The notes under the pieces: generated by a model
Seen by the model: only the letters and a program-made list of their open reading frames with translations
The model's database searches: none
What the model was told of the DNA's origin: nothing
Shown: piece by piece, positions 462 through 59,394 of the stretch
How positions within the stretch are numbered: position 1 is the stretch's first letter
Layout: each line of letters starts with the position of its first letter
From: Chlamydiota bacterium
GTDB taxonomy: Bacteria > Chlamydiota > Chlamydiia > Chlamydiales > 2-12-FULL-49-11
Assembly: GCA_947478685.1 (NCBI GenBank)
Contig: CANJWO010000003.1
Span: 1 to 62,645, forward strand
Direction of reading: 5' to 3'
Length of the DNA: 62,645 nt
Position numbers and translations under genes: made by a program

Positions 462-1262
462 ATGAATTCTTTAGAAAAAATGAATGGTACAGTCTATCAG
501 AAGGGTATTGAGTGGAAAACAGATAACAATGATGGATCTGTCTATATAAGCAATTGCAGTTTCGCAGATAGAGTAAAGGAAAATTTAGCTACACGGAAGT
601 GGCAAATTTTGGCTGGAGTGGCAATTATTGGAGTTTGTGCTGCTGTACTAGCGATAGCTATCCCGCTATTTTCCGCAACTATAGTACCTGACGTCGCTGT
701 TTTGGGTACAATTTTTGCAATAGATATACTAATAGTCGCTATTCCTTTTGTTCTAGCGAGAATATTTTCATTGCCAACTTCTTTAGCTAAGGTGCGTGCG
801 CCTGCTATGCTTGTTGAAATTCTAGGGCGCAAGGCAGTTGTGCCAGATCGGATTCTACGTAGAAAATCGACAGGACAGGGATTTACAGGATATGCATTTA
901 ACCTAAAATATAGGGTAACTTTAGGCAGAGAGTTTCCTGCTTCGGAAACACTAAAAATGAGATCTGAAATTGATTTAGGATATGAAAGTTCTAGAAAAGA
1001 GCAAAGTCAAATAGGGACAGAAAAGCAGCTTGCCGATTTCGGCAGATATATAAGAATTTCCGAGAGAGCTTTTACAAGACATCTAACTCCAGATCGAATT
1101 CATCAAATTCTCGATGAAACTAAGCTCAATTTTGAATTTGTCCGTAGTCGGATCAAACGTCTTATTGCAGGAGAGACAATTGGAATCTTAAATCCAAAAG
1201 GTGAAGAGCAGCCTGTTACTCCAGATTCGAAGATTCAACCCGGCTGGATTTTAAAGCAGTAG
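462..1262 (+). CDS. Inc-like membrane protein (bilobed hydrophobic domain), candidate type III secreted inclusion-membrane protein
   Basis: 266-aa ORF. Two adjacent hydrophobic segments (WQILAGVAIIGVCAAVLAIAIPLF and VAVLGTIFAIDILIVAIPFVLARIF) are separated by a 7-aa loop about 45 aa from the N-terminus; the rest is hydrophilic. GGAG sits 8 nt upstream of the ATG. No enzyme motif seen. Confidence 0.5.
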   Translation: MNSLEKMNGTVYQKGIEWKTDNNDGSVYISNCSFADRVKENLATRKWQILAGVAIIGVCAAVLAIAIPLFSATIVPDVAVLGTIFAIDILIVAIPFVLARIFSLPTSLAKVRAPAMLVEILGRKAVVPDRILRRKSTGQGFTGYAFNLKYRVTLGREFPASETLKMRSEIDLGYESSRKEQSQIGTEKQLADFGRYIRISERAFTRHLTPDRIHQILDETKLNFEFVRSRIKRLIAGETIGILNPKGEEQPVTPDSKIQPGWILKQ

Positions 1263-1302: not shown

Positions 1303-2520
1303 TTAGGCGGTGCGGTGGCGATGGAAGAAGTAGATGAAGCAGAGGAGGATGAAGATGGAGCCGGTGAGGAGGGGGGCGTAGATGTTGATGGCGGCGAGGG
1401 GGCCGGCGACGAGGGGGGCGATGATTTGACCGATTGACCACATGGATCCGCTGGCTCCCATGGCACGGCCTTGGAGAGCGTCGGGTGTTTCAATGGAGAG
1501 GATAGTTCCTAGGTTGACCCAAGAGAGGGCGCCACCTATGAGGGCGATGGGGATGATAAACCAGAAGGGCCAGAGGGTGTTTGGGTAGACGAAGAGGGCG
1601 ACGCCAACGGAAGAGAGGATTGTCCCTGTGAGAATTAGTTTGTGGAGGGGGAATTTTGCGATGAGTTCCTTGTTTAGATACATGGCAACAAAAAACCAGA
1701 TAAGAGCTTGGTAGGCAAAGATATCGCCGATGGTGCCTGCACTTAGGTGAAATTTTTGGACAAGATAAGTGGGTGAGAAGATAAGAAAAAAGCCCCAGCC
1801 GATTGAGAAGAGAAGGAGGGCTGTAAGAATAATTCTTAATTTTTTCTGATGAAAGACGATCCGAATATCTTTAAACGTTGAGAGGAGGCTGATATGGGCC
1901 CCTTTTCTTTTCCACGTCTCAACAAAAAAGAAATAGACCATAAAAAAATTGATAAGGGCTGCTACAGCTGCAAAGATGAATGCGCCCGACCCAAAGAGCC
2001 AGTTAGGATTGGCAAGTTTTCCGCCTATCCAAGGGCCTGCTACAAATCCAAGACCACCAACTCCAATAAGTAAGCCAAATGCTCTGCTACGATGCTTGGT
2101 ATCAGTGAGATCGGCTGTTGCAGATTGTGCCAATGCAAAATTTCCAGAGCAAAAACCTGTTACCATTCGGCCGATAAATAACCATAAGAGACTTTGAGAA
2201 TAAACGCTTAAGGCCATCAAGGCATAACCAAAGATAGAGAGTCCGATCGTTGCTAAAAAGACTTTATACCGTCCATAATGATCGGCCATTGCTCCTGCAG
2301 CTGGGGCTCCAAAAAATTGGGTCACTCCAAATACAGCAAAAAGGAATCCGAGCATTGTTGTCCGAGTCAGTTCAGATGCATCATGTCCAAAAAAGGCAAG
2401 ATTGGGATTGAGCAAAAGGGGGGCTAAAACGGGGAATACAATTGAATATCCTACAAGATCAAGACCATAAGTAAGTAATATGGTTAAAAATGTCCGGTAA
2501 TCTCTGTCCGATCTAAACAT
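1303..2520 (-). CDS. MFS transporter (drug:H+ antiporter / TetA-like)
   Basis: 405 aa with a multi-TM profile. MFS motif A GAMADHYGRYKV follows TM2. Confidence 0.85.
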   Translation of the reverse strand: MFRSDRDYRTFLTILLTYGLDLVGYSIVFPVLAPLLLNPNLAFFGHDASELTRTTMLGFLFAVFGVTQFFGAPAAGAMADHYGRYKVFLATIGLSIFGYALMALSVYSQSLLWLFIGRMVTGFCSGNFALAQSATADLTDTKHRSRAFGLLIGVGGLGFVAGPWIGGKLANPNWLFGSGAFIFAAVAALINFFMVYFFFVETWKRKGAHISLLSTFKDIRIVFHQKKLRIILTALLLFSIGWGFFLIFSPTYLVQKFHLSAGTIGDIFAYQALIWFFVAMYLNKELIAKFPLHKLILTGTILSSVGVALFVYPNTLWPFWFIIPIALIGGALSWVNLGTILSIETPDALQGRAMGASGSMWSIGQIIAPLVAGPLAAINIYAPLLTGSIFILLCFIYFFHRHRTA

Positions 2521-2725: not shown

Positions 2726-2760
2726 GACAAAATGCACTGCTAGTTGGAGCTAGCAGTGCA
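2726..2760 (-). terminator. Intrinsic terminator downstream of the CPBP protease gene
   Basis: Perfect 11-bp stem TGCACTGCTAG / CTAGCAGTGCA (2733-2743 / 2750-2760) with a 6-nt loop, followed on the minus strand by TTTTG. Lies 14 nt after the stop at 2774. Confidence 0.7.
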
Positions 2761-2773
2761 ATGTTTCCTAGGC

Positions 2774-3748
2774 TTAGAATTCGAATGAGTATGCGAATTG
2801 CGGCTTCCCTACAACAGCAGTAGGGGCTGCAAGCGTGCCTGCCAAAAAGAGGGTGAAATCGTACCAAGCGTGAAGAGCTACGCTCGATTTTAGGGAACGA
2901 TTTTTATGGGTAAGCCATCCCATATAGCCGCCAAGTGAAGTGATAAGCGGGAGACTAAATGAGTAATAACGCCAGCGATCTTTTTCATCTAAGCCTTGAG
3001 CGTTTGGAATATGGACGGCACCAAATACTAATGAAGAGAGGACAATTGCTCCTGTTGGATTTAGACGTTCTGCAAGATACGATTGAAGGTAGCCCCTAAA
3101 AAAAGACTCCTCTCCAACACCAACTGAAAATGCAGCGAGAGGAAATATGTTTGATGATACGCTACAAGAGTTAATATGCATGTCTGTGAAAGCAAAATAG
3201 GAAACAGCGGTTCCGAGTGTGAGTGCGCCGAGTAATCCGCCCCAAACTTCAGGCTTTTTCATCACACTCCATCGAAACGGGGCTGTTGTTAAATCAGATA
3301 GACTATCCATCGGCATTCTATAAGTATAGCCACTTTGTCCATTATTAATTCGGACATCTCTGTAGGCTGCAAAAATACCATAAGACCACATATTTGAAGC
3401 TGTTATGATGCTTACGGCGTCGTGAGTAAAAGCGTTTGTTCCGATTAAAGCACTGGTTGAACCAAATAGGCTTGCCGCTGTCTTTAAGTCGCCTAGATAA
3501 ACATGGCCAAGTCCAGGTACTAAAAATGACAATCCGACAGTTAAGAAGGAGCTTCTCTGGTGTTTTGGCAGTACAGGAATTGTCCCAGTCAATTGCGTTT
3601 CGGGAAGAGTCGGATTTGTAAATGTAGGCTGTTCAAGCATGGTAACTTGTTCTACTACAGGCTCGTCAGAGGTGTCGGCAAATACTAAAGATGATGCAGA
3701 AAGAATAGCGATTAAAAATTTCATGAAGACTCCGATTGTATTTTGCAA
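2774..3748 (-). CDS. CPBP (CAAX protease/bacteriocin-processing, Abi) family intramembrane protease with N-terminal extension
   Basis: Carries the family motifs EESFFRGYL and FGAVH plus HAWYD in a multi-TM C-terminal half. The likely true start is the ATG at 3724 (MKFLIAILSASSLVFA signal peptide). Confidence 0.75.
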   Translation of the reverse strand: MQNTIGVFMKFLIAILSASSLVFADTSDEPVVEQVTMLEQPTFTNPTLPETQLTGTIPVLPKHQRSSFLTVGLSFLVPGLGHVYLGDLKTAASLFGSTSALIGTNAFTHDAVSIITASNMWSYGIFAAYRDVRINNGQSGYTYRMPMDSLSDLTTAPFRWSVMKKPEVWGGLLGALTLGTAVSYFAFTDMHINSCSVSSNIFPLAAFSVGVGEESFFRGYLQSYLAERLNPTGAIVLSSLVFGAVHIPNAQGLDEKDRWRYYSFSLPLITSLGGYMGWLTHKNRSLKSSVALHAWYDFTLFLAGTLAAPTAVVGKPQFAYSFEF

Positions 3749-6774: not shown

Positions 6775-7017
6775 ATGAGTAATGAAAGAGAAGAAGAGAT
6801 TGAGCTAAACGAGGCATTTCTTGCAGATTTAGAAAATCTTCTTGATAAACATGAAGATATGAATTCGGTAGAAGTAGTTGTTCAACTACTCTCTATGTCC
6901 TATTCAATTATGCACGAAACAGCTCCTTCTCTTGAAGAAGGTCACGAGTTTATGCAAAAAATGCTCGAAAAAATGTACGAAGCCGAAAGTGGCGTCGAAT
7001 TAATCGACGACGAATAA
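6775..7017 (+). CDS. Small acidic hypothetical protein (80 aa)
   Basis: ORF with GAGG 7 nt upstream of the ATG at 6775, followed by a clean terminator. Very acidic and predicted helical; no recognised family. Confidence 0.5.
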   Translation: MSNEREEEIELNEAFLADLENLLDKHEDMNSVEVVVQLLSMSYSIMHETAPSLEEGHEFMQKMLEKMYEAESGVELIDDE

Positions 7018-7091: not shown

Positions 7092-7619
7092 TTACCGAAG
7101 TAGCTTGAGCCGTTTCAATAGATAGATATTTTTTGGGTCACTAGTAAGAATTTCATGATCATAGCCAATATCAAAGAGTAGTTCTGCTTTTATGTAATCT
7201 TTTTGGTCAGTACTAAGGATTGAGCCAAAGCTTAGGTGTCCGAATTTCATCATCCGTCTTTCAAGATTGTAAACATACTGGGTGATTTCGCTGCCTGATA
7301 AATAGCCATTGAGAACAAACAATTTTGAGATAGCAGGAATGTTTAATTGCGAGAAGGGCGAGGAAGGGGGGTGATGCCAGGCTATTGTTGCATATGCAAC
7401 CATGTGACCATTTTTAGAAATCATGCTAAATTCATCTGGTAGAAATATGCGCTCTTTAAATAGTACTTGAGTGCGCTCTCTAATTGGTGTGGAATTTGTG
7501 CGCAAAGGGAGGCTGAAACCGATTATGGAGGAGGTTAAGGATGGAAGGGTTCTCATAGAATTTGTTAATGCATGCATAGAAGAAACACTATACTGAAAAG
7601 GGGTGTTTTTAAAAATCAA
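7092..7619 (-). CDS. Hypothetical protein (possibly a degenerate GNAT-like fold)
   Basis: 175-aa ORF with a TTG start, 2 nt downstream of the preceding gene. The segment LFVLNGYLSGSEITQYVYNLERRMMKFG ... AELLFDIGYDH loosely resembles the GNAT beta4-alpha3 and C-terminal motifs. This is a weak assignment. Confidence 0.4.
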   Translation of the reverse strand: MIFKNTPFQYSVSSMHALTNSMRTLPSLTSSIIGFSLPLRTNSTPIRERTQVLFKERIFLPDEFSMISKNGHMVAYATIAWHHPPSSPFSQLNIPAISKLFVLNGYLSGSEITQYVYNLERRMMKFGHLSFGSILSTDQKDYIKAELLFDIGYDHEILTSDPKNIYLLKRLKLLR

Positions 7620-8317: not shown

Positions 8318-8869
8318 TTAATCGATAAGAATGTCGAGGCCGTCTAGGAGCGAGAGGACTTCGGGGCTTGAAAATTTAGCTTTGGTAAGTTTGTTTGAAG
8401 TGAGATTGATGGAATAGTTAATCGCTTCATGAAAGTTAGCTTTAGTCATATTTGTGTTATGAAACATGCTTCCCTTTAGATCGCAGCCTTGGAAGTTTGC
8501 TTGGATAAGAACGGTAGCTGTAAAATAGGTGTCACGAATAACCGATTTTAAGAATGAGGTGTTTCTTAAGTTGAGATCAGAAAAATTACAGGTGTCGATG
8601 AGGCAGTTTGTAAATTTTATGGAGATAAATGTAGGATCACATTTTGAAAAATTGGCCCCTACAAGTTTGGAATTTAAGAAATGGACATTTTGAAATCGAC
8701 ACGAATCAATTTTAACTAAACTTAGATTACATTTACTGAACGTGCAATCTATGAAAGTTGCATGGCTTAAGTTAGCTTGGTTAAGATCACAGTTTTCAAA
8801 AGTGATATCGGTAAAAGTTTTGTGATTGAGGTTTGCTCCAGCAAAGTTCTGTTTTTCTAAGAGAGTCAT
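8318..8869 (-). CDS. Pentapeptide-repeat protein
   Basis: 183 aa made almost entirely of A(D/N)LXX-type pentapeptide repeats (ANLNH, ANLSH, CNLSL, ANFSK, ANFQG, ANFHE ...). Confidence 0.85.
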   Translation of the reverse strand: MTLLEKQNFAGANLNHKTFTDITFENCDLNQANLSHATFIDCTFSKCNLSLVKIDSCRFQNVHFLNSKLVGANFSKCDPTFISIKFTNCLIDTCNFSDLNLRNTSFLKSVIRDTYFTATVLIQANFQGCDLKGSMFHNTNMTKANFHEAINYSINLTSNKLTKAKFSSPEVLSLLDGLDILID

Positions 8870-8872
8870 ATA

Positions 8873-10261
8873 TTAACGAGGCCTTTTTTTGGAGAATTTT
8901 TTGTAGAGGAAGAAGATAGAGAGAGGGGCTAGAACGATAACGTAACCTAAGGCAATAAGGAGAGCATATTTGGCTTTCGAGCCAAATTGGAGGGCTTCAG
9001 GGGCAAAAAAACTAATGATGATGGTAATGATGCAGCCAAAAATGCCTAAAATAGTTGTTGTCCACATTCCGATAGATCCACCCGGGATTTTGAAAACTTT
9101 TGGCCGATCAATATATTTGTGATGAAGAGTGATAGCAGCTAGAAACATTAGGATGTACATAAGCATATAAAGGCTTGTGCTTAATGCGGTTAGCAGCCAA
9201 TAAAAAGCATTTACGCTAGGAACTAGCAGATAGACAAAACAAAAAGCACTAACTAAGATTGCCTGTATAATAAGAATATTAGCAGGGGCGTCGAAACGAT
9301 TTTTTTTTGCAAAAAATGGGGGTAAGTAGCCAAATTCAGCGGCATGGAGAAAGCCCTTTGCAGGGGAGAGGAGCCAATTAATGATACTTCCGACCGTGCC
9401 GACAACGATTATAATTGGAATAACAGGTAAGAACCAAGATAGATTAAATGCATTTAGAAAAAGGGAGAAGACTTCTACAACTCCGGCAACTAGACTAATT
9501 TCATTTTGTGGAATTATGATTGCAATTGCGAGGGAGCCGAGTAGCATAGAAAAGAGTATAAAAAGGCTCGCTATACAAATGGCTCTTGGAAAATTTCTTT
9601 GCGGATTTTTAATTCCGGTAATATAGACCCCTGCAAGCTCCATTCCCAGAAAACCTGCCATGATTGAAATAAGCGATACCCAGGAAGAGGCCGTTTTAAA
9701 AGTTGGAAGTATAGTGGCTGCACTAAATTCGATTTGAATAGGATGTCCAGTATAGACCCAAACAGCACCGAGAATAATTAGCAAAATAAGGGGAAAAATA
9801 GTCCCTATTATACCGCATAACTCGCTTATTTTTGCTGAAGTTCTAAGGCCAAAGAGATTAAAAATAGTGAAAGCCCAGAAAAGGGCGATTACTGTTGAAA
9901 GAATATAAACTGGTGATGAAATGAGGCTAGGACTAATCAAATAGGCGATTGTACCTGCAATAAATGAGAGGATAGATGGATACCAGACTAATGTATTGGT
10001 CCATTGAAGCCAAATTGCAATCATAGCCATTTTATCACCAAATGCTCGATTCACCCAGTAGTAGACACCCCCCTTTTCAGGAAAGGTTGCAGAGAGTTCA
10101 GCAGCAACAAGGGCAGTCGGAATTAAAAATACAATTGCAGCGAATACAAAAAAGAAGATAAGGGAGCTGCCGAATAGGGCAGAAGAGGGGAGGTTTCGAA
10201 TGCTGTCGATTGTTGCAATGATGATGATAATGAGTGAGAACAATGGGATTTTTTTAGACAT
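8873..10261 (-). CDS. APC-superfamily amino-acid permease, GadC (glutamate:GABA antiporter)-like
   Basis: 462 aa with a roughly 12-TM profile. Several stretches align by eye with E. coli GadC from memory: PQNEISLVAGVVEVF vs PGNEINLSAGVMQTF, and FKIPGG vs FNIPGG. Confidence 0.75.
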   Translation of the reverse strand: MSKKIPLFSLIIIIIATIDSIRNLPSSALFGSSLIFFFVFAAIVFLIPTALVAAELSATFPEKGGVYYWVNRAFGDKMAMIAIWLQWTNTLVWYPSILSFIAGTIAYLISPSLISSPVYILSTVIALFWAFTIFNLFGLRTSAKISELCGIIGTIFPLILLIILGAVWVYTGHPIQIEFSAATILPTFKTASSWVSLISIMAGFLGMELAGVYITGIKNPQRNFPRAICIASLFILFSMLLGSLAIAIIIPQNEISLVAGVVEVFSLFLNAFNLSWFLPVIPIIIVVGTVGSIINWLLSPAKGFLHAAEFGYLPPFFAKKNRFDAPANILIIQAILVSAFCFVYLLVPSVNAFYWLLTALSTSLYMLMYILMFLAAITLHHKYIDRPKVFKIPGGSIGMWTTTILGIFGCIITIIISFFAPEALQFGSKAKYALLIALGYVIVLAPLSIFFLYKKFSKKRPR

Positions 10262-17163: not shown

Positions 17164-17487
17164 ATGGCAACGGATTTGTCCATAATTAAGCTAGAGTTGG
17201 GTATGCTACAAAAAGTTAAGATAAAAGATACATTTGTTGTTATGAATGAGAAAGGGCTGCATACCCGTCCTGCAACGGAACTTGTTAAGTGTGTCTCTAA
17301 TTTTAAAGCCCAAGTGACCCTACATTATCAAAATCTCTCTGTAAATGCAAAATCGCTCCTTGGTATTCTCATGCTAGCTGCCGCCAGGGGCGCCAAAATT
17401 CGTATCGAAGCAGAAGGGGACGACGCTGAAGCTTGCGTCTCTTCCCTCATCGACCTAGCTAAGAATAAATTCCATATGAGTTATTGA
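17164..17487 (+). CDS. ptsH: Phosphocarrier protein HPr (with N-terminal extension)
   Basis: Active-site motif GLHTRPA and regulatory Ser region NAKSLLGIL. An alternative start is at 17203. Confidence 0.85.
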   Translation: MATDLSIIKLELGMLQKVKIKDTFVVMNEKGLHTRPATELVKCVSNFKAQVTLHYQNLSVNAKSLLGILMLAAARGAKIRIEAEGDDAEACVSSLIDLAKNKFHMSY

Positions 17488-29662: not shown

Positions 29663-30924
29663 TTATAGAGATTGCGATGCCAAAACTTTCCCCCACGATG
29701 AATGAGGGGAAAATCGTCAAATGGTACAAAAAAGAGGGCGATCCTATTGCTGAAGAAGAGGTTCTTTGTGAGATTGCAACCGATAAATCGACAATGGAAT
29801 TTACTTCGATAGAAAAAGGGCATATTCGAAAAATCTTTTTTAAAGAGGGGGATGTAGTCCCTGTTGGAGAGATTCTACTACTACATACAGAGACAAAAGA
29901 TGAAGATATCTCCGGCTATAAGCCGAAAAAGGCCGAAGGTAAAAAAGTTGAAGCTAAAACGGAAGAGACTAAAGTAGAAATTATTAAGTCTAGCGGTTCA
30001 ATTGCTTTGCCAACGTTTAGTCCATCACCACCTAGAACTAATTACGAATTTGAGACAAAAGATGAGCTAGGAAAAATAGCTGCATCCCCCCTTGCAAAAA
30101 AAATAGCTATAGAAAAGGGGCTTGATCTTACTTCTATTAAAGGGTCTGGACCAAATGGGCGTATCATCGCTAAAGATTTGGAATTTGCCCAAAGCTCAGG
30201 TCCAATCTCATTAAACCAAGTGGCTCCCACAATTCCACCCGGAACATATGTTGAGATCCCCCTGACACCCATTCGGAAAGTAATTGGTGATCGCTTACAA
30301 GCATCTAAGATGACAATTCCCCACTATTACATTACCGATGAAGTTCGCGCTGACAAAATGATTGATCTAAGAAACCAGCTTAAAGAGGCCGGTTTAAAGG
30401 TAACTTATAATGATTTTGTCATTAGAGCATGTGCCCTCGCACTTAAAAAACACCCTGAAATCAATTCAGGATATAACTCACAAAATCAGACTATTATCCG
30501 CTTTAAGACCGTAGATATTTCTCTCGCAGTAAGCATTCCAGATGGTCTAATTACCCCAATCCTTTGTCATGCAGACTATAAAGACATCTTCACCCTGTCA
30601 GAAGAGGCTAAGCGTTTAGCAAAACGGGCCAAAGAAAATAGCCTTAAACCAGAAGAGTACCAAGGGGGCTCATTTACTATCTCAAACCTCGGAATGTTTG
30701 GCATCAAATCATTTGACGCCGTCCTCAATCCGCCCCAAGCAGCCATCCTGGCCGTAGGGGGCATCCTCGAAAGGGTCTTCCTTGAAAATGGCCAGCCAAT
30801 CCTCGGCCACGTCATGAACCTCACCCTCTCCCTCGATCACCGCGTCATCGACGGTGCCGACGGCGCCAAATTCCTCAACACACTCAAACTCTTCCTCACA
30901 AACCCAGCTATGCTCTTGGTCTAA
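29659..30924 (+). CDS. pdhC: Dihydrolipoamide acetyltransferase (E2)
   Basis: Lipoyl motif EIATDKSTMEF, an E3-binding domain (ASPLAKKIAIEKGLDL) and catalytic DHRVIDGA. ATGA overlap with pdhB. Confidence 0.93.
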   Translation: MIIEIAMPKLSPTMNEGKIVKWYKKEGDPIAEEEVLCEIATDKSTMEFTSIEKGHIRKIFFKEGDVVPVGEILLLHTETKDEDISGYKPKKAEGKKVEAKTEETKVEIIKSSGSIALPTFSPSPPRTNYEFETKDELGKIAASPLAKKIAIEKGLDLTSIKGSGPNGRIIAKDLEFAQSSGPISLNQVAPTIPPGTYVEIPLTPIRKVIGDRLQASKMTIPHYYITDEVRADKMIDLRNQLKEAGLKVTYNDFVIRACALALKKHPEINSGYNSQNQTIIRFKTVDISLAVSIPDGLITPILCHADYKDIFTLSEEAKRLAKRAKENSLKPEEYQGGSFTISNLGMFGIKSFDAVLNPPQAAILAVGGILERVFLENGQPILGHVMNLTLSLDHRVIDGADGAKFLNTLKLFLTNPAMLLV

Positions 30925-30928
30925 AGCT

Positions 30929-31852
30929 TTAGATCCATTTGCGGCGGCGGAAGAAGGCGAGGGTGATGACGATGACGACGAAGACAAAGCCCATGATGAT
31001 GTAGAAAGCGTGGGGACTGCGTTGGAAGGGCATGGGGACGTTCATGCCATAGATGCTGGAGATTACGGTGGGGAAGGTGAGGACGATTGTAAGGGCTGTT
31101 AGGAGCCGGATGGTTTTATTAAACTGATTTGTTATGATGACTTGTACTGAATTGCGAAGACTTGAGATGATGCGAAGGCTGAGGCGGCACATCTCTTCTG
31201 CTTGTTCTGTTGCGAGGAGGAGATCTTCTAGGAGATCTTGGTCTTTTTCATAGAGGATTGTAAACTTTCCAGAGAGGATTTCTTCAATTACCTCTTTCAG
31301 AGGTTGGAGAGAGTTTTGGCACTGATTGAGATTTTCCTCTTTTCTTGTTAGTTCAGTAATTTCTTTGTCACTTACTGTGCTGATATCTTTTTCTTGATTG
31401 ATCACCTCTGCTCTGATCCGTCTAATTACTTTTGTATATTCCTGAACAATGCGTAAAAGAATGTGAATAAGGAGCTTTGTCCGCATGCTGGTGGCGGTTG
31501 TCGATTTTTCTGATAAAATTCTCTCGATAATATGACAAGTAGCTGGACAGATTGTGACAAGATGCTCCTTTGTGACAACTATTGTAAGTGTCGCTGTATA
31601 AAGGCCTACCTCTTGCAGATAGGGGAATCGGACATAAACTACAAAGGAGTCGTTTTCAAGTCGTTCAATACGAGCGATTTCCATCATATCGAGGGCGTCT
31701 TTAATATCGTCGGAGTCTATTTTTAGAATCTTAGAAAGGTTCTCAATATCTTCGAGCGTAGCATTTCCTGCATGGATCCAACTGTTGGATATTGGAGCCG
31801 GAATGATATGAAAACGCTCATCAGCTGTTTCTTTTAAGTAGTTTGTGTACAT
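30929..31852 (-). CDS. CorA-family divalent cation transporter
   Basis: YGMNV (the GMN motif) lies between two C-terminal TM helices. 307 aa. Confidence 0.8.
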   Translation of the reverse strand: MYTNYLKETADERFHIIPAPISNSWIHAGNATLEDIENLSKILKIDSDDIKDALDMMEIARIERLENDSFVVYVRFPYLQEVGLYTATLTIVVTKEHLVTICPATCHIIERILSEKSTTATSMRTKLLIHILLRIVQEYTKVIRRIRAEVINQEKDISTVSDKEITELTRKEENLNQCQNSLQPLKEVIEEILSGKFTILYEKDQDLLEDLLLATEQAEEMCRLSLRIISSLRNSVQVIITNQFNKTIRLLTALTIVLTFPTVISSIYGMNVPMPFQRSPHAFYIIMGFVFVVIVITLAFFRRRKWI

Positions 31853-35972: not shown

Positions 35973-36569
35973 TTAGACGGGGAGTCTTGAGGAGAAGGCT
36001 CGAGTGAGGGTCCCTTCGTCGAGAAAGTCAAGGCTTGAGCCGAGGGGCATGCCCATGGCGAGGCGGGAGACTCTGATTCCGGCCGGCTCGAGCTCTTTTT
36101 TTAGGAAGAGTGCGGTGGCATCCCCTTCGATAGTTGAATCGAGGGCCAGGATGACCTCTTTAGTCTCGTGGCGGCTTAAGCGTTCTTTCAGTTCATTGAA
36201 GTGTAGATCGCTTGGGCCAAAGTGGTCCACGGGGGAGAGGAGGCCTGGAATGGCATGATAAAGGCCGTTATAGATGCCGGTTGCCTCTAAAGTAAAGATG
36301 TCTTTGGGGGAGGCAACAACGCATAGGAGGTTCGAATCACGAATGTCAAGGTCGCAGAAGGGGCAGCGAGCCTTGTCGTAGAGGGCTTTGCAGGTGGAGC
36401 ATGTAATTAAATCTTTTTTTATACTCTTTAGAAGCTCGGCAAAGGCTGTAAGATCGAGATCTTTCCAATAAATTATTTGAAAAGCGAACCGCTCGGCCGT
36501 TTTTTTCCCAACGCCAGGGAACTTTCTTAAGAATGAAATCAATTTTTGAAGTGCGAGAGGATAGCTCAT
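35973..36569 (-). CDS. recR: Recombination protein RecR
   Basis: HhH segment (FPGVGKKTAERFAF), C4 zinc finger CSTC...CPFC, and a Toprim domain. Confidence 0.93.
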   Translation of the reverse strand: MSYPLALQKLISFLRKFPGVGKKTAERFAFQIIYWKDLDLTAFAELLKSIKKDLITCSTCKALYDKARCPFCDLDIRDSNLLCVVASPKDIFTLEATGIYNGLYHAIPGLLSPVDHFGPSDLHFNELKERLSRHETKEVILALDSTIEGDATALFLKKELEPAGIRVSRLAMGMPLGSSLDFLDEGTLTRAFSSRLPV

Positions 36570-39354: not shown

Positions 39355-39603
39355 ATGGACGAAATTGAAAAAGAAGTAATAGACATCGTTGTTGAACAGC
39401 TTGGGGTTGATCCTGAGGAAGTTACATCAGAGAAGTCTTTTGTTGAACATCTTAATGCTGATTCGCTCGATCAAACAGAGCTAATCATGACATTTGAAGA
39501 GAGACTTGATCTTGAGATTTCTGAACAAGAAGCTGCAACGCTCCAAACAGTTGGCGACGTAGTAGCTTTTATTAAGAAAAAAAAAGCTGAAGTAAATATC
39601 TAA
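39355..39603 (+). CDS. acpP: Acyl carrier protein
   Basis: Phosphopantetheine attachment site [13 protein letters not shown]. 82 aa. Confidence 0.93.
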
Positions 39604-39613
39604 GTCTTATTTC

Positions 39614-39635
39614 GAGGGGCCTTTAATGGCTCCTC
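39614..39635. terminator. Hairpin between convergent acpP and potD (possible bidirectional terminator)
   Basis: GAGGGGCC-TTTAAT-GGCTCCTC, with 7 of 8 positions paired. T-tracts are weak. Confidence 0.4.
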
Positions 39636-39641
39636 TCTTAT

Positions 39642-40703
39642 CTATGATTTTATTTCAACCCAGGTGGGGCGAATGCGCTCTCTAGGTATTACGTAGTGGG
39701 TGAAGAAGAAGTCGTTTCTGCTTTGGACTTCAGTAAAGATTTCGTGATAACGGGGGATGTTTACAAAGGAGGCGAGAGGAAGAGCATCCTGGCATGCAGG
39801 AAAGAGAGGGCTAAGGTCTAATTGAGCAGCCATGATTTCAGGTTTATAGACAAAATTGATGAATTTATAAGCGGCATCTACATGTTCTGATTCGGCAGAG
39901 AGGGCAACATTTTCGATAGTTGTGAACAGTCCTTCTTTAGGGAGATAGATTTGAAGGTGAGAAAATTCTGGGTAGTTTTTCCAAAAAAATGAGACTCTTA
40001 GGATGGCTACTGGGCAATCTTCGGTGGAGATCATGTATTGGACTCTATCATCAGTGTACGCTTCGACCCGCTTTTTTTGCTCTTTTAGAAGCTTGATCAC
40101 GTTGTATTCTTCACTTGTGGAAAGGGTGTTTCTGAAACCGTAGAGATAATGGGAAGCAAAATCTAGGGCTTCTACTGGGTCGGCTGTCATGACTACTCTA
40201 GAGTTACCTTCAAAGAGGACTGAAAGAGAAGGTGTGAATGGTGTGTAGAGCTTCTTTTTTTCAAGGGCGAGGCCATAAACTTCCCAGAAATAGGGGATAG
40301 AGAATTGATTTTTTGGGTCGAAGTCTCTGTCCAATAGATAGGGTTCGATACGGTGTAAGAAGTCTAGCTTTTTCTTGTCTAATGGTTTAAGTAGTCCTTT
40401 CTCTCTAAGTTCGGTAACACCATAGTCAGATGGAAAGACAAGATCATAGCCAATCCCTTTAGTATTTTCGAGTTTTAAGATGAGCTCTTCATTGCTTGTG
40501 TAATGATTGACGATCAGTTTGATTCCTGTCTTCTCTTCAAATTTGCGAAAAGTCTCTTCAGGAAAAAAATCGCCCCAGACAAAAATATTGAGTATGTTTT
40601 TATCCTCGGTTTTAGCACAGCTGTAACTTGTAAAATAGGTGGCTAAAAAGAGAGAGAGTGTAATTCCTAGGATATAAAGAGAGCGTACAAAAAATTTCAT
40701 CAA
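39642..40703 (-). CDS. potD: Spermidine/putrescine ABC transporter substrate-binding protein
   Basis: 353 aa with a signal anchor and a PotD/PotF-type periplasmic binding fold. Last gene of the potABCD order. Confidence 0.85.
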   Translation of the reverse strand: MMKFFVRSLYILGITLSLFLATYFTSYSCAKTEDKNILNIFVWGDFFPEETFRKFEEKTGIKLIVNHYTSNEELILKLENTKGIGYDLVFPSDYGVTELREKGLLKPLDKKKLDFLHRIEPYLLDRDFDPKNQFSIPYFWEVYGLALEKKKLYTPFTPSLSVLFEGNSRVVMTADPVEALDFASHYLYGFRNTLSTSEEYNVIKLLKEQKKRVEAYTDDRVQYMISTEDCPVAILRVSFFWKNYPEFSHLQIYLPKEGLFTTIENVALSAESEHVDAAYKFINFVYKPEIMAAQLDLSPLFPACQDALPLASFVNIPRYHEIFTEVQSRNDFFFTHYVIPRERIRPTWVEIKS

Positions 40704-41467
40704 AATAACCTCGCCTCTTTTTTAAAGGAGAAAAAGAGAGCTGCTAATAGAACAATTAAAATCAGTAGGATAGAGGCAAAAGCGTTGACAACAGGAGAGA
40801 TTCCAAACCTGATAGATGCAACTAAAAATAGTGAAAGGGTTTGAGACGAAGTTCCTGAGCAAAAATAGGATAAGACAAAATCATCAAACGAGATGATAAA
40901 AATCATGAGCCCAGCTGCAAAGAGTGTCGGTCTCATTAAAGGGAGAGCCACTTTAAAAAATGTTTGAGATGAGCTTGCTCCTAAAACTCTAGAGGCTTCG
41001 AAAATACGGTGGTCTATCTCAGAAAAACGGATAAAGAGAATGGGTGTTGAAAAACCGAGTCCTAAAACTGTATGGGCGATGATAATAGTCGGAAGTCCAA
41101 GGGGAATATTTGCAAGCGTAAAATAGCTTAAAAGACCTACGCCAAGGACGGTTTCAGGGATGATAAGATTTCCATAGAAAAGAGTGGGCCAATTTCCAAG
41201 GGTTCTAACCCGTGATAAGAGGTAGAGGAGAAACATTGTGAGAATGATGCAGAGGAGTGTTGAAGTTGATGCGACGATAAATGAATTGAAAAAAGATTCC
41301 CAAAGCTCCTGAGATTCGAAAAGCTCTTTGTACCATCTAAGGGTAAAGTTGCCCCAGGGTGCGGGAAATGATTTTGTATTAAATGAAAATGCAATGAGAA
41401 CAAAGAGGGGTAAATAGAGAAATCCAAATACGGTAAATAAGAATAGATTAGGAATGAATCGTTTTAT
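40700..41467 (-). CDS. potC: Spermidine/putrescine ABC transporter permease PotC (no canonical start codon; putative ATA start overlapping the potB stop)
   Basis: The frame is open and PotC-like for 77 codons upstream of the first ATG at 41236 (SIKRFIPNLFLFTVFGFLYLPLFVLIAFSFN...). That stretch contains no ATG, GTG or TTG. The junction with potB reads ATAA. Confidence 0.7.
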   Translation of the reverse strand: MKRFIPNLFLFTVFGFLYLPLFVLIAFSFNTKSFPAPWGNFTLRWYKELFESQELWESFFNSFIVASTSTLLCIILTMFLLYLLSRVRTLGNWPTLFYGNLIIPETVLGVGLLSYFTLANIPLGLPTIIIAHTVLGLGFSTPILFIRFSEIDHRIFEASRVLGASSSQTFFKVALPLMRPTLFAAGLMIFIISFDDFVLSYFCSGTSSQTLSLFLVASIRFGISPVVNAFASILLILIVLLAALFFSFKKEARLF

Positions 41468-42405
41468 GCTCTTCTCGATTTTAGACCCCCAACAAGAATT
41501 TGAGTGATTTTTCCTAAAGCCAGATGTAGAACAACTAAGGAAAGGAGGAGGGCTGTTACGCTGATAACTGTAAAGGCGATGCCGAGCGGGGCTGTATGAT
41601 GATCCATTACGAAAAGAGAGATGACGTTGCCAATAAATAAATCTTTAGATCCGCCCATCAGTTCGGGTATAACGAATTCTCCAAATGCAGGGATGAATAC
41701 TAGATAAATCCCTGAACGTATTGCATTCATGCTTACTGGAATAAGAATTCTTCGAAGGGTCTGGCTCTTATTTGCCCCAAGATCGTAAGAGGCTTCCATG
41801 AGAGAGTTATCAAACCGCTCAAGGGAGGCAAAGATGGGGAGGACCATAAATGGGAGATAAAAATAGACCATCATCAATAGGATTGAAAAGTGGGTGTTTA
41901 AGAAGTGAATTGGATGGGTGATACAGCCAAATTGGATGAGTAGATTGTTTATAAAGCCATGTTTTTCCAATACGAAAAACCAGGCATAAATGTGGAGGAT
42001 GAAGTTTGTCCAGAACGGGATAATGAGGAGAAAGAGGAGGAGATTTTTGAGTCTTCCACTGTGAAATACGATTGAGTAGGCTAGAGGGAACCCAATAAAA
42101 AGACAAATAACTGTTGTGATGAAGCCAAGGGAGAGCGAATTTCTAATCACGCCGAAATAGGTAGGTGTCAGGACAGCTTTAAAATGGTCAATTGTAAACG
42201 ACTCAAAATGTCCCGTTTTTGACAATTTAATAAAGCTAGAAGTAACTAATATTAAAAGGGGGAGATAGAAGAAAAAAAATTGCCAAACAAAAGGGGTCAC
42301 TCCGATAGCAAAGGGGAATTCTTTTTTCAGACGTTTCCAAAAAGCGCTCTTTTTTTTCTCGCTTTTTATGAGTGCGCCAAATTTTTTTTCTACAGCCCCT
42401 GTCAT
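41464..42405 (-). CDS. potB: Spermidine/putrescine ABC transporter permease PotB
   Basis: 313 aa, 6-TM binding-protein-dependent permease with an EAA-like loop (EASYDLGANKSQTLRRILIP). Confidence 0.88.
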   Translation of the reverse strand: MTGAVEKKFGALIKSEKKKSAFWKRLKKEFPFAIGVTPFVWQFFFFYLPLLILVTSSFIKLSKTGHFESFTIDHFKAVLTPTYFGVIRNSLSLGFITTVICLFIGFPLAYSIVFHSGRLKNLLLFLLIIPFWTNFILHIYAWFFVLEKHGFINNLLIQFGCITHPIHFLNTHFSILLMMVYFYLPFMVLPIFASLERFDNSLMEASYDLGANKSQTLRRILIPVSMNAIRSGIYLVFIPAFGEFVIPELMGGSKDLFIGNVISLFVMDHHTAPLGIAFTVISVTALLLSLVVLHLALGKITQILVGGLKSRRA

Positions 42406-43650: not shown

Positions 43651-44622
43651 ATGGATGTTAAACATGTAGTGATTATCGGGTCGGGACCGGCTGCCTGGAC
43701 GGCTGCGCTTTATGCAGCAAGGGCAGAATTAAAACCTATAATATTTACAGGCGTAAATCGCGGAGGCCAGAGAGGGGGGCAGCTTACAACAACTTTTGAA
43801 GTTGAAAACTTTCCGGGCTTTCCTCTTGGCGTGACTGGGCCTGAATTAATTAGGCTAATGGAAGAGCAGGCAAGAAGATTCGACGTAGTTGTTTTTGAAG
43901 AGGATGTTATCGAGATCGATTCTACAAATTCCCCATTTATTGTGAAGGGATCTAGTAACAGTATATTGGCTATGTCAATCATCTTAGCTACAGGGGCTTA
44001 TGCTAAAAAAATGGACGTGCCAGGGAATAAAGAGTTTTGGAATAGGGGGATTAGTGCTTGTGCCGTCTGCGATGGGGCCCTTCCGTTTTTTAGAAATCAA
44101 CCCCTTGCAGTAATTGGAGGTGGAGACTCGGCTTGTGAAGAGGCCCATTTTTTGACAAAGTATGCAAGTCAGGTATATCTAATTGTCCGTAAAGATAAGT
44201 TTAGAGCTTCAAAAATTATGCAAGAGAGGGTGAAATCTCATCCTAAGATTAAAGTTATTTTTAATCATACTTTGGAAGAGGCTATGGGGGCTACCGCTTT
44301 AGAGGCCATTGAAATTGAAGATGTAAATACAGGGGTAAAGCAGACTTTATCTGTAAGAGGTCTTTTTTATGCTATCGGGCATCAACCAAATACTGAAATT
44401 GTTCAGGGAATCATCAATCTTGATAAGGTCGGTTATGCAAAAGTAAAGACTGGCACGACTCACACCTCTTTTCCTGGAATTTTTGCTGCAGGAGATGTAA
44501 GTGATAAGAGATATCGTCAAGCAATCACAGCAGCTGGAATGGGCTGTATGGCTGCTTTAGACGCGGAGAAATGGATTACCGAGAACTCGGAGAAATGGCT
44601 TACACAACAAAATCAAAAATAG
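43651..44622 (+). CDS. trxB: Thioredoxin reductase
   Basis: GSGPAA FAD motif, redox-active CAVCDG, GGGDSA NADPH motif. Confidence 0.93.
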   Translation: MDVKHVVIIGSGPAAWTAALYAARAELKPIIFTGVNRGGQRGGQLTTTFEVENFPGFPLGVTGPELIRLMEEQARRFDVVVFEEDVIEIDSTNSPFIVKGSSNSILAMSIILATGAYAKKMDVPGNKEFWNRGISACAVCDGALPFFRNQPLAVIGGGDSACEEAHFLTKYASQVYLIVRKDKFRASKIMQERVKSHPKIKVIFNHTLEEAMGATALEAIEIEDVNTGVKQTLSVRGLFYAIGHQPNTEIVQGIINLDKVGYAKVKTGTTHTSFPGIFAAGDVSDKRYRQAITAAGMGCMAALDAEKWITENSEKWLTQQNQK

Positions 44623-45419
44623 TAGCCCTTTTTTTAGGAATGGCCGTTCAAGTTTGTGCACTCGAGGAACAACCTTGGTTTCATCCACCGTTTAATTTTC
44701 ATGGAAAGGGGGCAGTGGATGGGAGCTTCTTTACCAATGTAAATAATGGATATAATCCCATTGATTATCATTCTACAAATATTCAGGTGATAGCAGGTCT
44801 CTTAGCTCCTGTCTCGCCTCGCTGGGATGCAGAGATTGAAATTGAGCTCGAAAGCACATCTAAATATAATTTTGGATTCGAAAGCGCGGCTTTCCAAATA
44901 AGAAGGCTTTTTTTGAACGATATTGTAGAAGATTTTGTCAGCTTTGATATCGGCGTTAACGTTCGAGCTGTTCCGGCGCAACGTCTTCACGATGTCGCCG
45001 TTCCCTACCACGATCTTTGGAATTTTGAACTCACAAGCGCCTTAGGTAAGGAGTTTACACAGGAAAATGAATGGCTCTGGAGGACATTTGTCTCTGCAGC
45101 TCTTGGTCAAGCTAACCGCGGCTATCCATGGGTGAAAGCAAATTTTGATATTCGTGCAAAAGCCTTTAAAGATTATATGTTCACAGCCTTTCTAAGAAGT
45201 TATTTTGGTTTGGGTAATCGTACCCTTATCAATGTAAGAGATTTTGATGGCTATGCGTTCTACCGCCACCAAAGCATCGATGTAGGCGCCACATTTACCA
45301 TCTTCTTTAATGCAAGAGGATCACTCACCCTCAGTTATCTGCACCGCTTTCTAGCCAGATCATTCCCCGAAGACTACAACAGCTTCAGACTCACGTACGA
45401 CCTCCCTTTCTCTTTCTAA
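44595..45419 (+). CDS. Putative outer-membrane beta-barrel protein
   Basis: Signal peptide MAYTTKSKIVALFLGMAVQVCA. Alternating beta-strand pattern with a C-terminal ...LPFSF. Start taken at 44595. Confidence 0.55.
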   Translation: MAYTTKSKIVALFLGMAVQVCALEEQPWFHPPFNFHGKGAVDGSFFTNVNNGYNPIDYHSTNIQVIAGLLAPVSPRWDAEIEIELESTSKYNFGFESAAFQIRRLFLNDIVEDFVSFDIGVNVRAVPAQRLHDVAVPYHDLWNFELTSALGKEFTQENEWLWRTFVSAALGQANRGYPWVKANFDIRAKAFKDYMFTAFLRSYFGLGNRTLINVRDFDGYAFYRHQSIDVGATFTIFFNARGSLTLSYLHRFLARSFPEDYNSFRLTYDLPFSF

Positions 45420-45420
45420 A

Positions 45421-45592
45421 TATAGTGAATTAAATTTACATTGATAAGTTTACACAGTATGTGCCCTTGGGTTTCATTAGGCATTAGCCGGCGCTAAAGC
45501 AGGCCGTGTGTTTTCACACGAGCGATGCAAGCGAATGGAACCCAAGGGATACAGACGCAGTAAAATTATCAATGCAAATTTAATTCGCTATA
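45421..45592 (+). mobile_element. MITE-like element family A, copy 2 (complete, 172 bp)
   Basis: 26-bp terminal inverted repeats TATAGTGAATTAAATTTACATTGATA (45421-45446) and TATCAATGCAAATTTAATTCGCTATA (45567-45592), complementary at 24/26. Internal 15-bp stem CCCTTGGGTTTCATT (45464-45478) / AATGGAACCCAAGGG (45534-45548). No coding capacity. Confidence 0.85.
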
Positions 45593-45603
45593 TAAATAAG
45601 AAT

Positions 45604-45704
45604 TTTTACCACAGAGAACACAGAGGCGCTACGCGCAAAGAATTTGTTGTTTTTTCTCCGTGTCCTCTGTGCTCTCTAGAGAGCGCAGCGAACGGGTGGT
45701 TAAA
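45604..45704. repeat. Palindromic repeat family B, copy 2 (inverted relative to copy 1, more degenerate)
   Basis: ACCACAGAGAACACAGAGGCGCTACGCGCAAA ... TCTCCGTGTCCTCTGTGCTCTCT matches the reverse complement of 2615-2695. It lies 11 nt after MITE copy 2. Confidence 0.7.
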
Positions 45705-45729
45705 ATATTTTTCTTATTTTTTATTGGAG

Positions 45730-47672: not shown

Positions 47673-48515
47673 ATGTTAGGGTGGATTTTTTGGGATCCGA
47701 GTAGTGAGTTTGTAATCATTCCTTTTGTGAATATCCCTATCACTTGGTACGGGCTGTTGTTCGCTACAGGCTTTTGGCTTGGGTTTCATATGTTTACATA
47801 CATGTTAAAAAATAGACTTGGTTCAAAAGATGCAAATGCTTTTTCAGAAAGGCTCTTGCTCTATATAATTGTAGCGACAATCATCGGTGCACGACTTGGG
47901 CATATCTTTTTCTACGAACATCCGATGGAATACCTAGCCAATCCTATTTCAATTTTTAAAACCTGGGAAGGGGGATTAGCAAGTCACGGCGCCGTCCTTG
48001 CGATTGTATTGGCGGTCCTCATTTTTTCTATTAGAATTAGAAAAGAGTTCCCCGAATTTACCTTTTGGAAAATCCTAGATTACCTCTCAGTTCCTGCAAT
48101 GCTTCTAAGCACTTTGATCCGTGTCGGTAATTTCTTTAATCAAGAAATTTTAGGTGTTTCTACAGATAAGCCATGGGGAATTATCTTTGGCCACCCCGCG
48201 GATGGCGGACTTATTACCCCAAGACACCCAGCTCAGCTCTATGAGGCTGCCTTCTATTTTGCCCTCTTTCTCCTCCTCGCCCATATCTGGTACAGAAAAA
48301 GGGACGAGCTTCTTCCAGGCCGCCTTGCCGGCATCACTCTAGTAAGTGCATTTCTCTTTAGATTTCTCGTCGAATTCATAAAAACAGAGCAAAGCGCCTG
48401 GTTTGACCAGCCTAACGGCTCTCTTCTTATGGGTCAGGTCCTGAGTCTTCCTATTATCGCAATTGGCCTCTATCTCCTAGTCAGAAAAGATAAGAAGTTT
48501 ATTCAATCACACTAG
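47673..48515 (+). CDS. lgt: Prolipoprotein diacylglyceryl transferase
   Basis: YGLLFATGF, GGLASHG, GNFFNQE, HPAQLYEA. Start taken at the ATG at 47673. Confidence 0.9.
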   Translation: MLGWIFWDPSSEFVIIPFVNIPITWYGLLFATGFWLGFHMFTYMLKNRLGSKDANAFSERLLLYIIVATIIGARLGHIFFYEHPMEYLANPISIFKTWEGGLASHGAVLAIVLAVLIFSIRIRKEFPEFTFWKILDYLSVPAMLLSTLIRVGNFFNQEILGVSTDKPWGIIFGHPADGGLITPRHPAQLYEAAFYFALFLLLAHIWYRKRDELLPGRLAGITLVSAFLFRFLVEFIKTEQSAWFDQPNGSLLMGQVLSLPIIAIGLYLLVRKDKKFIQSH

Positions 48516-58440: not shown

Positions 58441-59394
58441 ATGCTGCAAAAGATTGTTTTATCAACTATTTTTTTTAGTTTTATAGGATGGGGCTCGCTT
58501 CTAGGGTTTCATGTGACTGCAGAGTCAGAAAAGGTCTTTGCTTTTGAGGTCGGTTATTGTGGTCTTTGGCGCTCGCCACTGAAAGATATGAGTTTTATAA
58601 CTGGGGGGGAGAATGGGGAAGCTCCTTTTGAAAAAGTTAAATTTAACTATGTTTCTGGGGTTAGAGCTCTAGTTGAAATGAATCTCGGACAGAAAAATTC
58701 TATTGAGGCAGTTTACACAGGTCTATTTAATTGGAATAATCATGGATCAGCAACAGACTCTACCTATACTTTTAGTGTTCCAACTTCCCCATATTTAAAT
58801 GAAGATTGGACCGATTTTTACTATTTTCACTATCACTATAGATCACAGCTTAATTCGGGGGAATTGTCGTATTGGAGGCATGTCACGCCACGTTACGTCA
58901 ATTATTTTTCATTTTCCTGGATGATCGGCTTAAGATATATTGACTTTCGAGATAGTATCCATATGAACAATGGAACAGGTCAAGTTGGCGATACAGCTAG
59001 TGTAAAAGCGATCAATCGAATGGGTGGAGCTCAAGTAGGCTTAGAACTTCAGTGTAATTCATCAAAAAGATTTACATGGGCTATTCAAGTTAAGGGGGGC
59101 GGCTATGCCGATTTTGTTTCTAGGAAAACAATATTTAATGATCTTGGAAATACCGAGCTAATTGTCAATTCAGAGCAAAGCAGAGTGAAAAAAGATTTCA
59201 CTTTAGAATTGATTCCCTACATTATGTATAGAATAAATCCGATCTATTTGCGCCTCGCATATGACAGAGTAATCCTCTTTAATCCCGTATTTGCCCCAAG
59301 GCAGCTTTCAGCTGCAAAATTTGTGGATGAGGTCTACACCCACAATTACGTCAATTTTCAAGCCGTCTACGCCAGCATCGGCTTCTACTGGTAA
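58441..59394 (+). CDS. Putative outer-membrane beta-barrel protein/porin
   Basis: Signal peptide, alternating aromatic beta-strand pattern, and C-terminal ...ASIGFYW. Confidence 0.6.
   Translation: MLQKIVLSTIFFSFIGWGSLLGFHVTAESEKVFAFEVGYCGLWRSPLKDMSFITGGENGEAPFEKVKFNYVSGVRALVEMNLGQKNSIEAVYTGLFNWNNHGSATDSTYTFSVPTSPYLNEDWTDFYYFHYHYRSQLNSGELSYWRHVTPRYVNYFSFSWMIGLRYIDFRDSIHMNNGTGQVGDTASVKAINRMGGAQVGLELQCNSSKRFTWAIQVKGGGYADFVSRKTIFNDLGNTELIVNSEQSRVKKDFTLELIPYIMYRINPIYLRLAYDRVILFNPVFAPRQLSAAKFVDEVYTHNYVNFQAVYASIGFYW

Follow-up and report, generated by a model that had tools for sequence, protein, structure and literature searches.

C-ending codon tails in genes that end transcription units of an environmental chlamydial lineage: candidate Rho-loading sites inside coding sequence

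The window analysed here is a stretch of 62,645 nucleotides from an uncultured Chlamydiota bacterium known from metagenomes alone (contig CANJWO010000003.1 of assembly GCA_947478685.1). Near its middle, pdhC (E2) and a corA gene converge with their stop codons (30922-30924 and 30929-30931) 4 nt apart, and plus-strand composition changes from C-rich to G-rich at this junction. The original prediction had attributed the change to runs of codons ending in C before both stop codons, had listed similar tails in other genes at the ends of transcription units, and had proposed that they are Rho-loading (Rho utilisation, rut) sites written into synonymous positions. The C-rich tails in the window are real and essentially absent outside the lineage.

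Tails of C-ending codons in the window

Fifty-nine genes were scored (cut-off 100 aa; acpP, 39355-39603, was left out) by comparing the fraction of codons ending in C (C3; G3 likewise for G) in the last 40 codons of each gene with that of its own body, using a binomial test with a threshold of p<1e-4. Pfam scans agreed with the names pdhABC, corA, MFS transporter, ptsH, recR, fabHDG, potABCD-like, groES/EL, HU, lgt and tyrS. In seven of the 59 genes the last-40 C3 was far above that of the body (p from 6e-6 to 1.5e-18), while not one of the 59 showed a significant C3 head. The seven strong tails, the junction between two of them and two weaker cases are as follows.

30730..30921, plus strand: pdhC (E2) tail; last 64 sense codons, C3 0.62, G3 0.12; all positions C 0.39, G 0.20; last-40 C3 0.72 vs body 0.21
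30922..30931, no strand: pdhC/corA junction; pdhC stop TAA, 4-nt spacer AGCT, corA minus-strand stop
30932..31144, minus strand: corA tail; last 71 codons, C3 0.66, G3 0.08; best 78-nt C/G 4.1; last-40 C3 0.75 vs body 0.29
1306..1680, minus strand: tail of the MFS transporter gene 1303-2520, the strongest; C3-rich over the last ~125 codons; C/G 6.1; last-40 C3 0.97 vs body 0.32
17365..17484, plus strand: tail of ptsH (HPr, 17164-17487); last 40 codons, C3 0.38 vs body 0.10; convergent neighbour at 2 nt; structure above average
45258..45416, plus strand: tail of the 282-aa gene 44571-45419 (outer membrane protein in the original prediction; a Pfam scan gave no match); last 53 codons, C3 ~0.54, G3 ~0.05; last-40 C3 0.55 vs body 0.21
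49698..49862, minus strand: tail of the 612-aa open reading frame (ORF) 49695-51533; last 55 codons, C3 0.56; last-40 C3 0.60 vs body 0.24
59257..59391, plus strand: tail of 58441-59394, a porin-like gene (weak BBP7 match); last-40 C3 0.47 vs body 0.14; convergent neighbour at 1 nt
35976..36131, minus strand: recR, a weaker case; last 52 codons, C3 0.56; stretch structured
39651..39788, minus strand: potD-like binding-protein gene, weak tail; C3 ~0.50, G3 0-0.05, p=0.02

C-ending synonyms extend over the last 40-125 codons (120-375 nt), and when a 40-codon window was slid along every gene, the top seven C3 maxima all fell at relative position 0.96-1.00. The MFS gene, convergent with 462-1262(+) at a distance of 40 nt, closes with 36 consecutive NNC codons, one NNT, five more NNC and the stop. 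Recounting reproduced the hand counts of the original prediction exactly: 36 of the last 54 codons of pdhC against 7 of its first 54, 44/60 in corA, 39/40 in the MFS gene, 24/42 in recR, 31/56 in the gene ending at 45419 and 31/54 in the 612-aa ORF. The recR end is indeed C3-rich, but the gene is so from codon 51 onwards, over three quarters of its length. The tails reported by eye fared unevenly: those of ptsH and of the gene ending at 59394 are clear (p<1e-4 each), that of potD is present but weak (0.47 vs 0.31), and neither lgt (0.30 vs 0.24, with a C3 patch that stops 57 codons before the stop codon) nor the 1449-aa CHAT-like gene (0.23 vs 0.19) carries one at its end. A further strong tail lies outside the window, on a 99.6-kb ENA scaffold of the same genome that adds 10 kb to the left (locus L091); here the last gene of a four-gene operon (8798-9502) ends with C3 0.70 and G3 0.00. 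The same scaffold includes an ORF of 80-82 aa (window 6775-7017, plus strand; L091 16308-16556), convergent with 7092-7619, with a last-40 C3 of 0.28 vs 0.05.

By the same test, no tail was found among ~270 genes of more distant chlamydial loci, and 772 genes of non-chlamydial loci from other phyla gave two, both doubtful. Chance or miscounting is therefore rejected by the exact counts, the binomial test, the position scan and the background loci.

The signal is specific to C and to the sense strand, and is not GC-richness. In four-fold boxes the share of C was 0.57 (plus strand) and 0.77 (minus strand) in tails vs 0.16 and 0.25 in bodies, and that of G was 0.07 and 0.02 vs 0.16 and 0.08. First-position C rises and first-position G falls as well, and Leu is encoded by CTN in 58 of 59 tail codons vs 67% elsewhere. 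A GC-rich patch, horizontal transfer or GC-biased conversion was rejected on these grounds, since G falls as C rises and Lys/Glu/Gln codons are not shifted to G (0.24 ending in G in tails vs 0.31 in bodies). The amino-acid composition of membrane segments leaves the third positions unexplained, and the soluble PdhC and HPr are tailed too. A repeated or mobile element, a shared motif or the variable region of a diversity-generating retroelement was also discarded, as the tails share only chance matches of at most 12 nt; the pdhC tail can be aligned with its orthologs through the final residue, as can the MFS tail until a short C-terminal extension that is missing from the window protein.

At the RNA level the tails are C-enriched, G-depleted, rich in YC dinucleotides (Y, pyrimidine) and mostly weakly structured, in agreement with the Rho-type composition originally claimed. 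With best 78-nt C/G ratios of 1.9-6.1, the seven strong tails rank among the top 0.1-1.4% of sense windows on the same strand (recR and potD reach the 89th and 98th percentile), and the tails hold 29-66 YC dinucleotides per 210 nt against backgrounds of 17 and 24, a 2-3x excess; NNC codons supply a C every 3 nt. By minimum free energy over the last 120 nt, the MFS, 612-aa ORF and 44571 tails are among the least-structured 1-5% of windows, and pdhC, corA and potD show average to low structure.

A raw scan for CG skew was discarded as a detector: replication skew renders minus-strand RNA C-rich as a whole and so confounds it. On the plus strand, which is G-rich, 45258..45416 is one of only two sense regions that reach a CG skew of 0.4. 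Cumulative GC skew climbs almost monotonically over the whole window, with the plus strand G-rich throughout, so that the window appears to lie within one replichore; 34 of its 59 genes are on the C-rich strand and their sense RNA is already moderately C-rich.

One explanation would place the effect in translation, with NNC codons over the last 40-60 positions changing the kinetics of elongation or termination before release. The pattern does keep codon phase and end exactly at the stop codon, and the 36-codon NNC run in the MFS gene suggests selection codon by codon. Faster decoding is nevertheless weakened as a motive because presumably highly expressed genes do not prefer NNC: groEL uses C in 0.12 of its four-fold codons where its strand uses 0.25, C is likewise scarce at such sites in HU, ssb, acpP and skp, and no tails occur on groEL, groES, HU or operon-internal genes. 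This scarcity of C agrees with the proposal that genes with good expression keep their RNA from being C-rich (PMC13323073). The Leu bias and a depletion of Lys, Glu and Gln point to nucleotide content rather than decoding, and the tailed proteins are unrelated in type. Known codon-usage gradients (the 5' ramp and the 3' enrichment of optimal codons) are likewise position-dependent synonymous choices. Unlike them, the tails are far larger in effect (C3 from 0.2 to 0.6-0.97), are restricted to unit-terminal genes, use codons that groEL avoids, and are specific to strand and nucleotide, not to tRNA. A translational effect fits the data poorly and is considered quite improbable.

C3-rich patches also occur away from gene ends, in the first 43 codons of an amino-acid permease gene directly after the stop of an EamA gene (10133-10255, minus strand), inside a pot permease gene (41953-42084, minus strand) and in lgt (48246-48341, plus strand; the patch mentioned above). 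These could be internal Rho sites, attenuators or the tail of the distribution.

Tails, transcription-unit ends and hairpins

Tails belong to the ends of transcription units, as originally proposed. A gene was called internal if a codirectional gene starts within 45 nt, and a codirectional end required a gap of at least 45 nt. Convergent junctions account for six of the seven strong tails; the seventh, that of the 612-aa ORF, is the only one with a codirectional gene next to it, ahead of a 77-nt AT-rich spacer with promoter-like and ribosome-binding-site-like sequence; no gene with a codirectional neighbour within 45 nt has a strong tail (none in 25 internal genes, as had been judged by eye). 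Tails were thus found at 6/20 convergent vs 1/38 codirectional ends (Fisher p=0.005). Tail minus body C3 averaged +0.16 for genes with a convergent end, +0.07 for those with a codirectional end and +0.015 for internal genes (terminal vs internal, Mann-Whitney U test, p=0.001), and the shift persisted when the seven strong cases were removed (p=0.02). Loci of close relatives gave the same contrast (p=1e-4), though some of their genes are orthologous to window genes and hence not fully independent; it was not seen in more distant chlamydiae.

The convergent bias could reflect a function of the opposite strand, where G-rich (GNN)n RNA or DNA would hinder convergent polymerases, for example through very stable rG:dC hybrids (R-loops) or through pausing, and so shield the gene that carries the tail. 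In its favour, besides the 6/7 convergent cases, both pdhC and corA are tailed and each read-through RNA would pass from C-rich to G-rich sequence. The tail of the 612-aa ORF, however, faces no convergent gene, and in the related loci L002 and L003 the pdhC tail is kept although a codirectional gene of 210-233 aa separates pdhC from corA. The antisense strand has no G-tract (G4) motifs, on which ground a G-quadruplex was also rejected. The tailed partner is usually the one expected to be more expressed (porin-like, HPr, pdh), which presumably fits a signal to stop a gene's own transcript better. An antisense function fits the convergent bias but not the codirectional cases, and I consider it rather unlikely.

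The claim that the pdhC/corA junction lacks a hairpin held only in part: there is no intrinsic terminator, but a long pairing between the C-rich and G-rich arms is predicted, and this fold across the junction barely exceeds shuffled sequence (z = -1.66), which counts against the antisense function too. A large bidirectional hairpin was rejected on this value and since other tails have no G-rich partner. The facing stop codons with their spacer form a perfect 14-nt palindrome (TCTAAAGCTTTAGA, 30919-30932), which is probably incidental, being too short and AT-rich for a terminator.

Two low-complexity ORFs rich in acidic and small residues, 30709..30987 (minus strand) and 30854..31102 (plus strand), exist at the junction as described and are spurious; their composition arises because GNN codons lie antisense to NNC. 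An overlapping antisense gene was rejected, since such ORFs are low-complexity GNN runs and the pdhC tail shows no extra third-base conservation relative to L002 and L003. Long spurious antisense ORFs created by tails could mislead gene callers and codon-based tests of horizontal transfer.

Across the window, sites with a hairpin plus T-run are no commoner than in shuffled sequence, and no intrinsic terminator (G+C-rich hairpin plus U-tract) was found at tail-bearing ends. The window's only two credible hairpin terminators both follow units without a strong tail.

2733..2760, minus strand: comparator hairpin, 11-12 pairs plus T-run, after 2774-3748 (minus strand), a unit end without a strong tail
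39614..39635, plus strand: comparator hairpin after acpP (39355-39603), the end of the fabH-fabD-fabG-acpP unit; fabG has no C tail

Tail-less outgroup chlamydiae carry hairpins after pdhC in L007, L012 and L019 (the first two with a recognisable T-run), and strong hairpins follow pdhC in L010, L016, L021 and L022, so pdhC appears to end a unit in several chlamydial lineages. Because no hairpin was found after pdhC in the tail-bearing orthologs, the comparison suggests that the tail takes the hairpin's place, as had been proposed, though the counts are too small for significance. Tails and intrinsic terminators share their genomic position and presumed job; unlike the latter, tails have neither hairpin nor U-tract and their signal lies inside coding sequence.

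The 310-nt spacer that follows the 282-aa gene (45420-45729) contains no convincing ORF, Rfam match or tRNA and is in part G+C-rich; an undescribed small RNA may lie in it. Across the window as a whole, searches for Rfam families and tRNAs were negative.

Gain, loss and turnover among relatives

The closest PdhC in the genome collection is that of L001 (90% identical), followed by L002 and L003 (77%), while PdhC of Rhabdochlamydiaceae and Simkaniaceae is ~50% identical. The window belongs to a genus-level clade of four roughly equidistant sublineages (window/L001, L002/L100, L003 and L097/L099), between which PdhC identity is 73-78%. Tails are present in three of the four, on both pdhC and corA wherever both were recovered (L100 holds corA only), with a C3 of 0.47-0.48 in the pdhC tails of L001, L002 and L003.

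Synonymous sites in the orthologous tails were compared, as the original prediction had suggested. Third-base identity between the window and L002 or L003 is 0.42-0.54 in the tail, no higher than the 0.47-0.49 of the body, and among codons whose amino acid has changed, 6/13 and 7/15 end in C in both species in the tail vs 3/79 in the body. Because C3 stays high while third-base identity is not raised, composition is maintained as individual C sites turn over, as would be expected for a degenerate signal. Protein sequence follows the same direction: Lys, Glu and Gln together make up 9-12% of these pdhC tails vs 12.5-19% in chlamydial orthologs without a tail, with the bodies alike. The MFS protein of the window has lost a short C-terminal extension carried by its relatives, most of which have it Lys-, Asn- or His-rich.

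A lineage-specific local bias of mutation or repair at unit ends, with purifying selection on the protein confining its visible effect to synonymous positions, would account for a trait that is labile between sisters, that tracks genome GC (0.40 in tailed genomes vs 0.355-0.369 in L097/L099) and that evolved quickly in the extreme MFS case. Against it, A, T and G all give way to C, but solely on the sense strand; amino-acid changes follow the same trend; C enrichment ceases at the stop codon although transcription runs on (spacers are AT-rich); and tails are kept across near-saturated synonymous divergence. Known biases associated with transcription (deamination of the non-template strand) deplete the sense strand of C. 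Mutational bias likewise fits the data poorly, and there is only a slim chance that it is the explanation.

Tight packing of genes, which the original prediction had given as the setting of the tails, neither requires nor explains them. L097 and L099 have tight pdhC/corA junctions (4 and 11 nt) with no pdhC tail, and L001, L002 and L003 keep the tail although a spacer of 41-105 nt and then an extra lineage-specific small gene follow; the spacers of L002 and L003 contain promoter-like sequence by eye. Should Rho loading be the function of the tails, the existence of both tailed and tail-less sister lineages would offer a natural experiment on the replacement of one terminator type by another.

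Small lineage-specific genes make the pdhC/corA junction a hot spot (L001 1529-1786, L002 11299-11931, L003 11315-12016 and L100 1304-1591); at least those of L002 and L003 show no sequence relationship to each other and contain hydrophobic stretches. Neither the window nor L097 has a small gene there, just the 4-nt spacer.

Three further features of the window concern other genes. A gene at 48499-49617 (minus strand) encodes a ubiquitin C-terminal hydrolase (UCH) domain protein, a eukaryote-like deubiquitinase that matches the expectation for a host-directed chlamydial effector; its 3' end overlaps the convergent lgt by 17 nt, and neither gene has a C tail. Two BPD_transp_1 permease ORFs of 178 and 313 aa lie at 40700-42405 (minus strand) with 227 nt between them, and one of these may have a different start or be interrupted, because the L099 product for one of these genes is 259 aa, cut by the locus end. 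Just past the right end of the window, a group II intron reverse transcriptase (RVT_1 + GIIM; L090 1646-2968) directly follows the window's final gene in one assembly; in the remaining assemblies shown, sequence breaks off no more than a few bases from where that gene ends, a pattern suggestive of a repeated mobile element.

Proposed Rho loading inside coding sequence

Rho favours unstructured stretches of RNA, at least 70-80 nt long, in which C is abundant and regularly spaced and G is scarce (PMC6407284, PMC12360218), and the tails have the properties by which RhoTermPredict recognises rut sites (at least 70-80 nt, C>G, regularly spaced C/YC; PMC6407284). Precedents from other bacteria agree with a role of such sequences in genes: a B. 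subtilis gene recoded synonymously towards C/T was sufficient for Rho termination (PMC13323073), Rut sites within dprA, a terminal gene of the same species, yield Rho-dependent 3' ends (PMC12350095), and intragenic Rut sites are common (PMC12350095, PMC13650167). Rho itself is among the core families of 37 Chlamydiales genomes (PMC3899948, Appendix Table 1). The analysis establishes the composition, position, strand specificity and unit-end association of the tails and their upkeep in evolution; from composition and context, I infer Rho as the reader and termination as the consequence. That the tails are factor-dependent terminator signals, most likely Rho-loading sites in the synonymous positions of unit-terminal genes, is put at about an even chance. 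The wider proposal is a little less secure than that, namely that a genus-level group of environmental chlamydiae encodes terminators inside proteins, the synonymous sites and some amino-acid choices in the last 40-125 codons of operon-terminal genes being selected as Rho-loading sites that replace the hairpins of several relatives.

Mechanistically, NNC codons, CTN for Leu, CGN for Arg and the replacement of some Lys, Glu and Gln residues would yield a C-rich, G-poor, YC-rich and mostly weakly structured mRNA 3' end. Such a tail may become free for Rho once the leading ribosome is released at the stop codon, or where polymerase has outrun the ribosomes, and Rho would then dislodge polymerase over the 100-200 nt that follow. 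With the signal occupying the final 120-375 nt of a gene, transcription would cease close to the stop codon or shortly past it, and less antisense transcription into a convergent neighbour or less read-through into the next promoter would be the expected outcome.

The tails resemble the rut regions of Rho-dependent terminators, including intragenic ones (polarity sites in E. coli, dprA and kinB in B. subtilis, Rut peaks in coding sequences of M. tuberculosis), in offering at least 78 nt of C-rich, G-poor and YC-rich RNA, weakly structured in most tails though not in HPr and recR, ahead of the expected transcript end. Rut sites inside genes are on record (PMC12350095, PMC13650167, PMC12360218), and synonymous recoding towards pyrimidines creates one (PMC13323073). 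Unlike known rut sites, these candidate sites are confined to the last 40-125 codons of unit-terminal genes, consist almost wholly of third-position C (up to 36 NNC codons running) and end at the stop codon; they are a lineage-wide habit and not a single locus. Coding strands avoid C to escape Rho under runaway transcription (PMC13323073), and the resulting purine bias follows the same logic, in which the C/G content of the sense strand sets exposure to Rho. There, Rho signals are avoided inside genes; here, the signal would be placed at the gene end.

A different strand-specific RNA function, such as a platform for another RNA-binding protein, or 3'-end trimming or tuning of mRNA stability, would suit a signal that is strand-specific, compositional and located at the mRNA 3' end, and the tie to Rho specifically is inferential. 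Even so, no bacterial reader of C-rich, G-poor RNA is known but Rho, which has exactly this preference (PMC12360218, PMC6407284), and an exonuclease barrier inside coding sequence would leave mRNAs without stop codons. This alternative is unlikely.

Several observations weigh against Rho loading. The tails lie wholly inside translated frames, while a classical rut site is ribosome-free untranslated RNA, so that access of Rho would need ribosome release, sparse translation or transcription uncoupled from it. The C enrichment ends at the stop codon even where a spacer of 52-310 nt follows (behind the 44571, 49695 and recR genes, spacers are rich in AT and not in C), and a pure RNA signal would not need to stop there. 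The MFS (375 nt) and recR (~440 nt) tails should be long enough to terminate transcription inside the gene if exposed, and 36 NNC codons in a row look like pressure on each site rather than a threshold in overall composition. The HPr and recR ends are more structured than 94-97% of windows. Minus-strand sense RNA is often at a CG skew of 0.4 from replication skew alone, so that composition alone cannot be the whole signal. Most transcription-unit ends of the window have no tail, no hairpin and no C-rich stretch downstream, and the stronger idea that every unit end has a rut site either in its tail or downstream was rejected because tail-less ends are not C-rich downstream. The sister lineage L097/L099, with a GC content of 0.355-0.369, manages its tight junction without a pdhC tail (C3 0.06 and 0.18) and with just a trace on corA (0.24 and 0.32 vs body 0.15 and 0.17). 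Finally, a tblastn search with an E. coli Rho sequence found no rho in the window or the compared loci.

Rho and the rut type of signal are known; what would be new is their systematic embedding in the last codons of operon-terminal genes, with gain and loss at the level of lineages, and a full-text literature search found no description of NNC tails at gene ends. If the Rho-loading reading is true, termination signals would be overlaid on coding sequence as a systematic genome habit, beyond isolated intragenic sites, and synonymous sites near stop codons would be under strong selection unrelated to translation. Operon ends in hairpin-poor genomes could become predictable from codon usage alone, the boundaries of transcription units would be legible in the codons used at gene ends, and the tails of these chlamydiae would be a natural counterpart to the avoidance of C on coding strands as an escape from Rho (PMC13323073).

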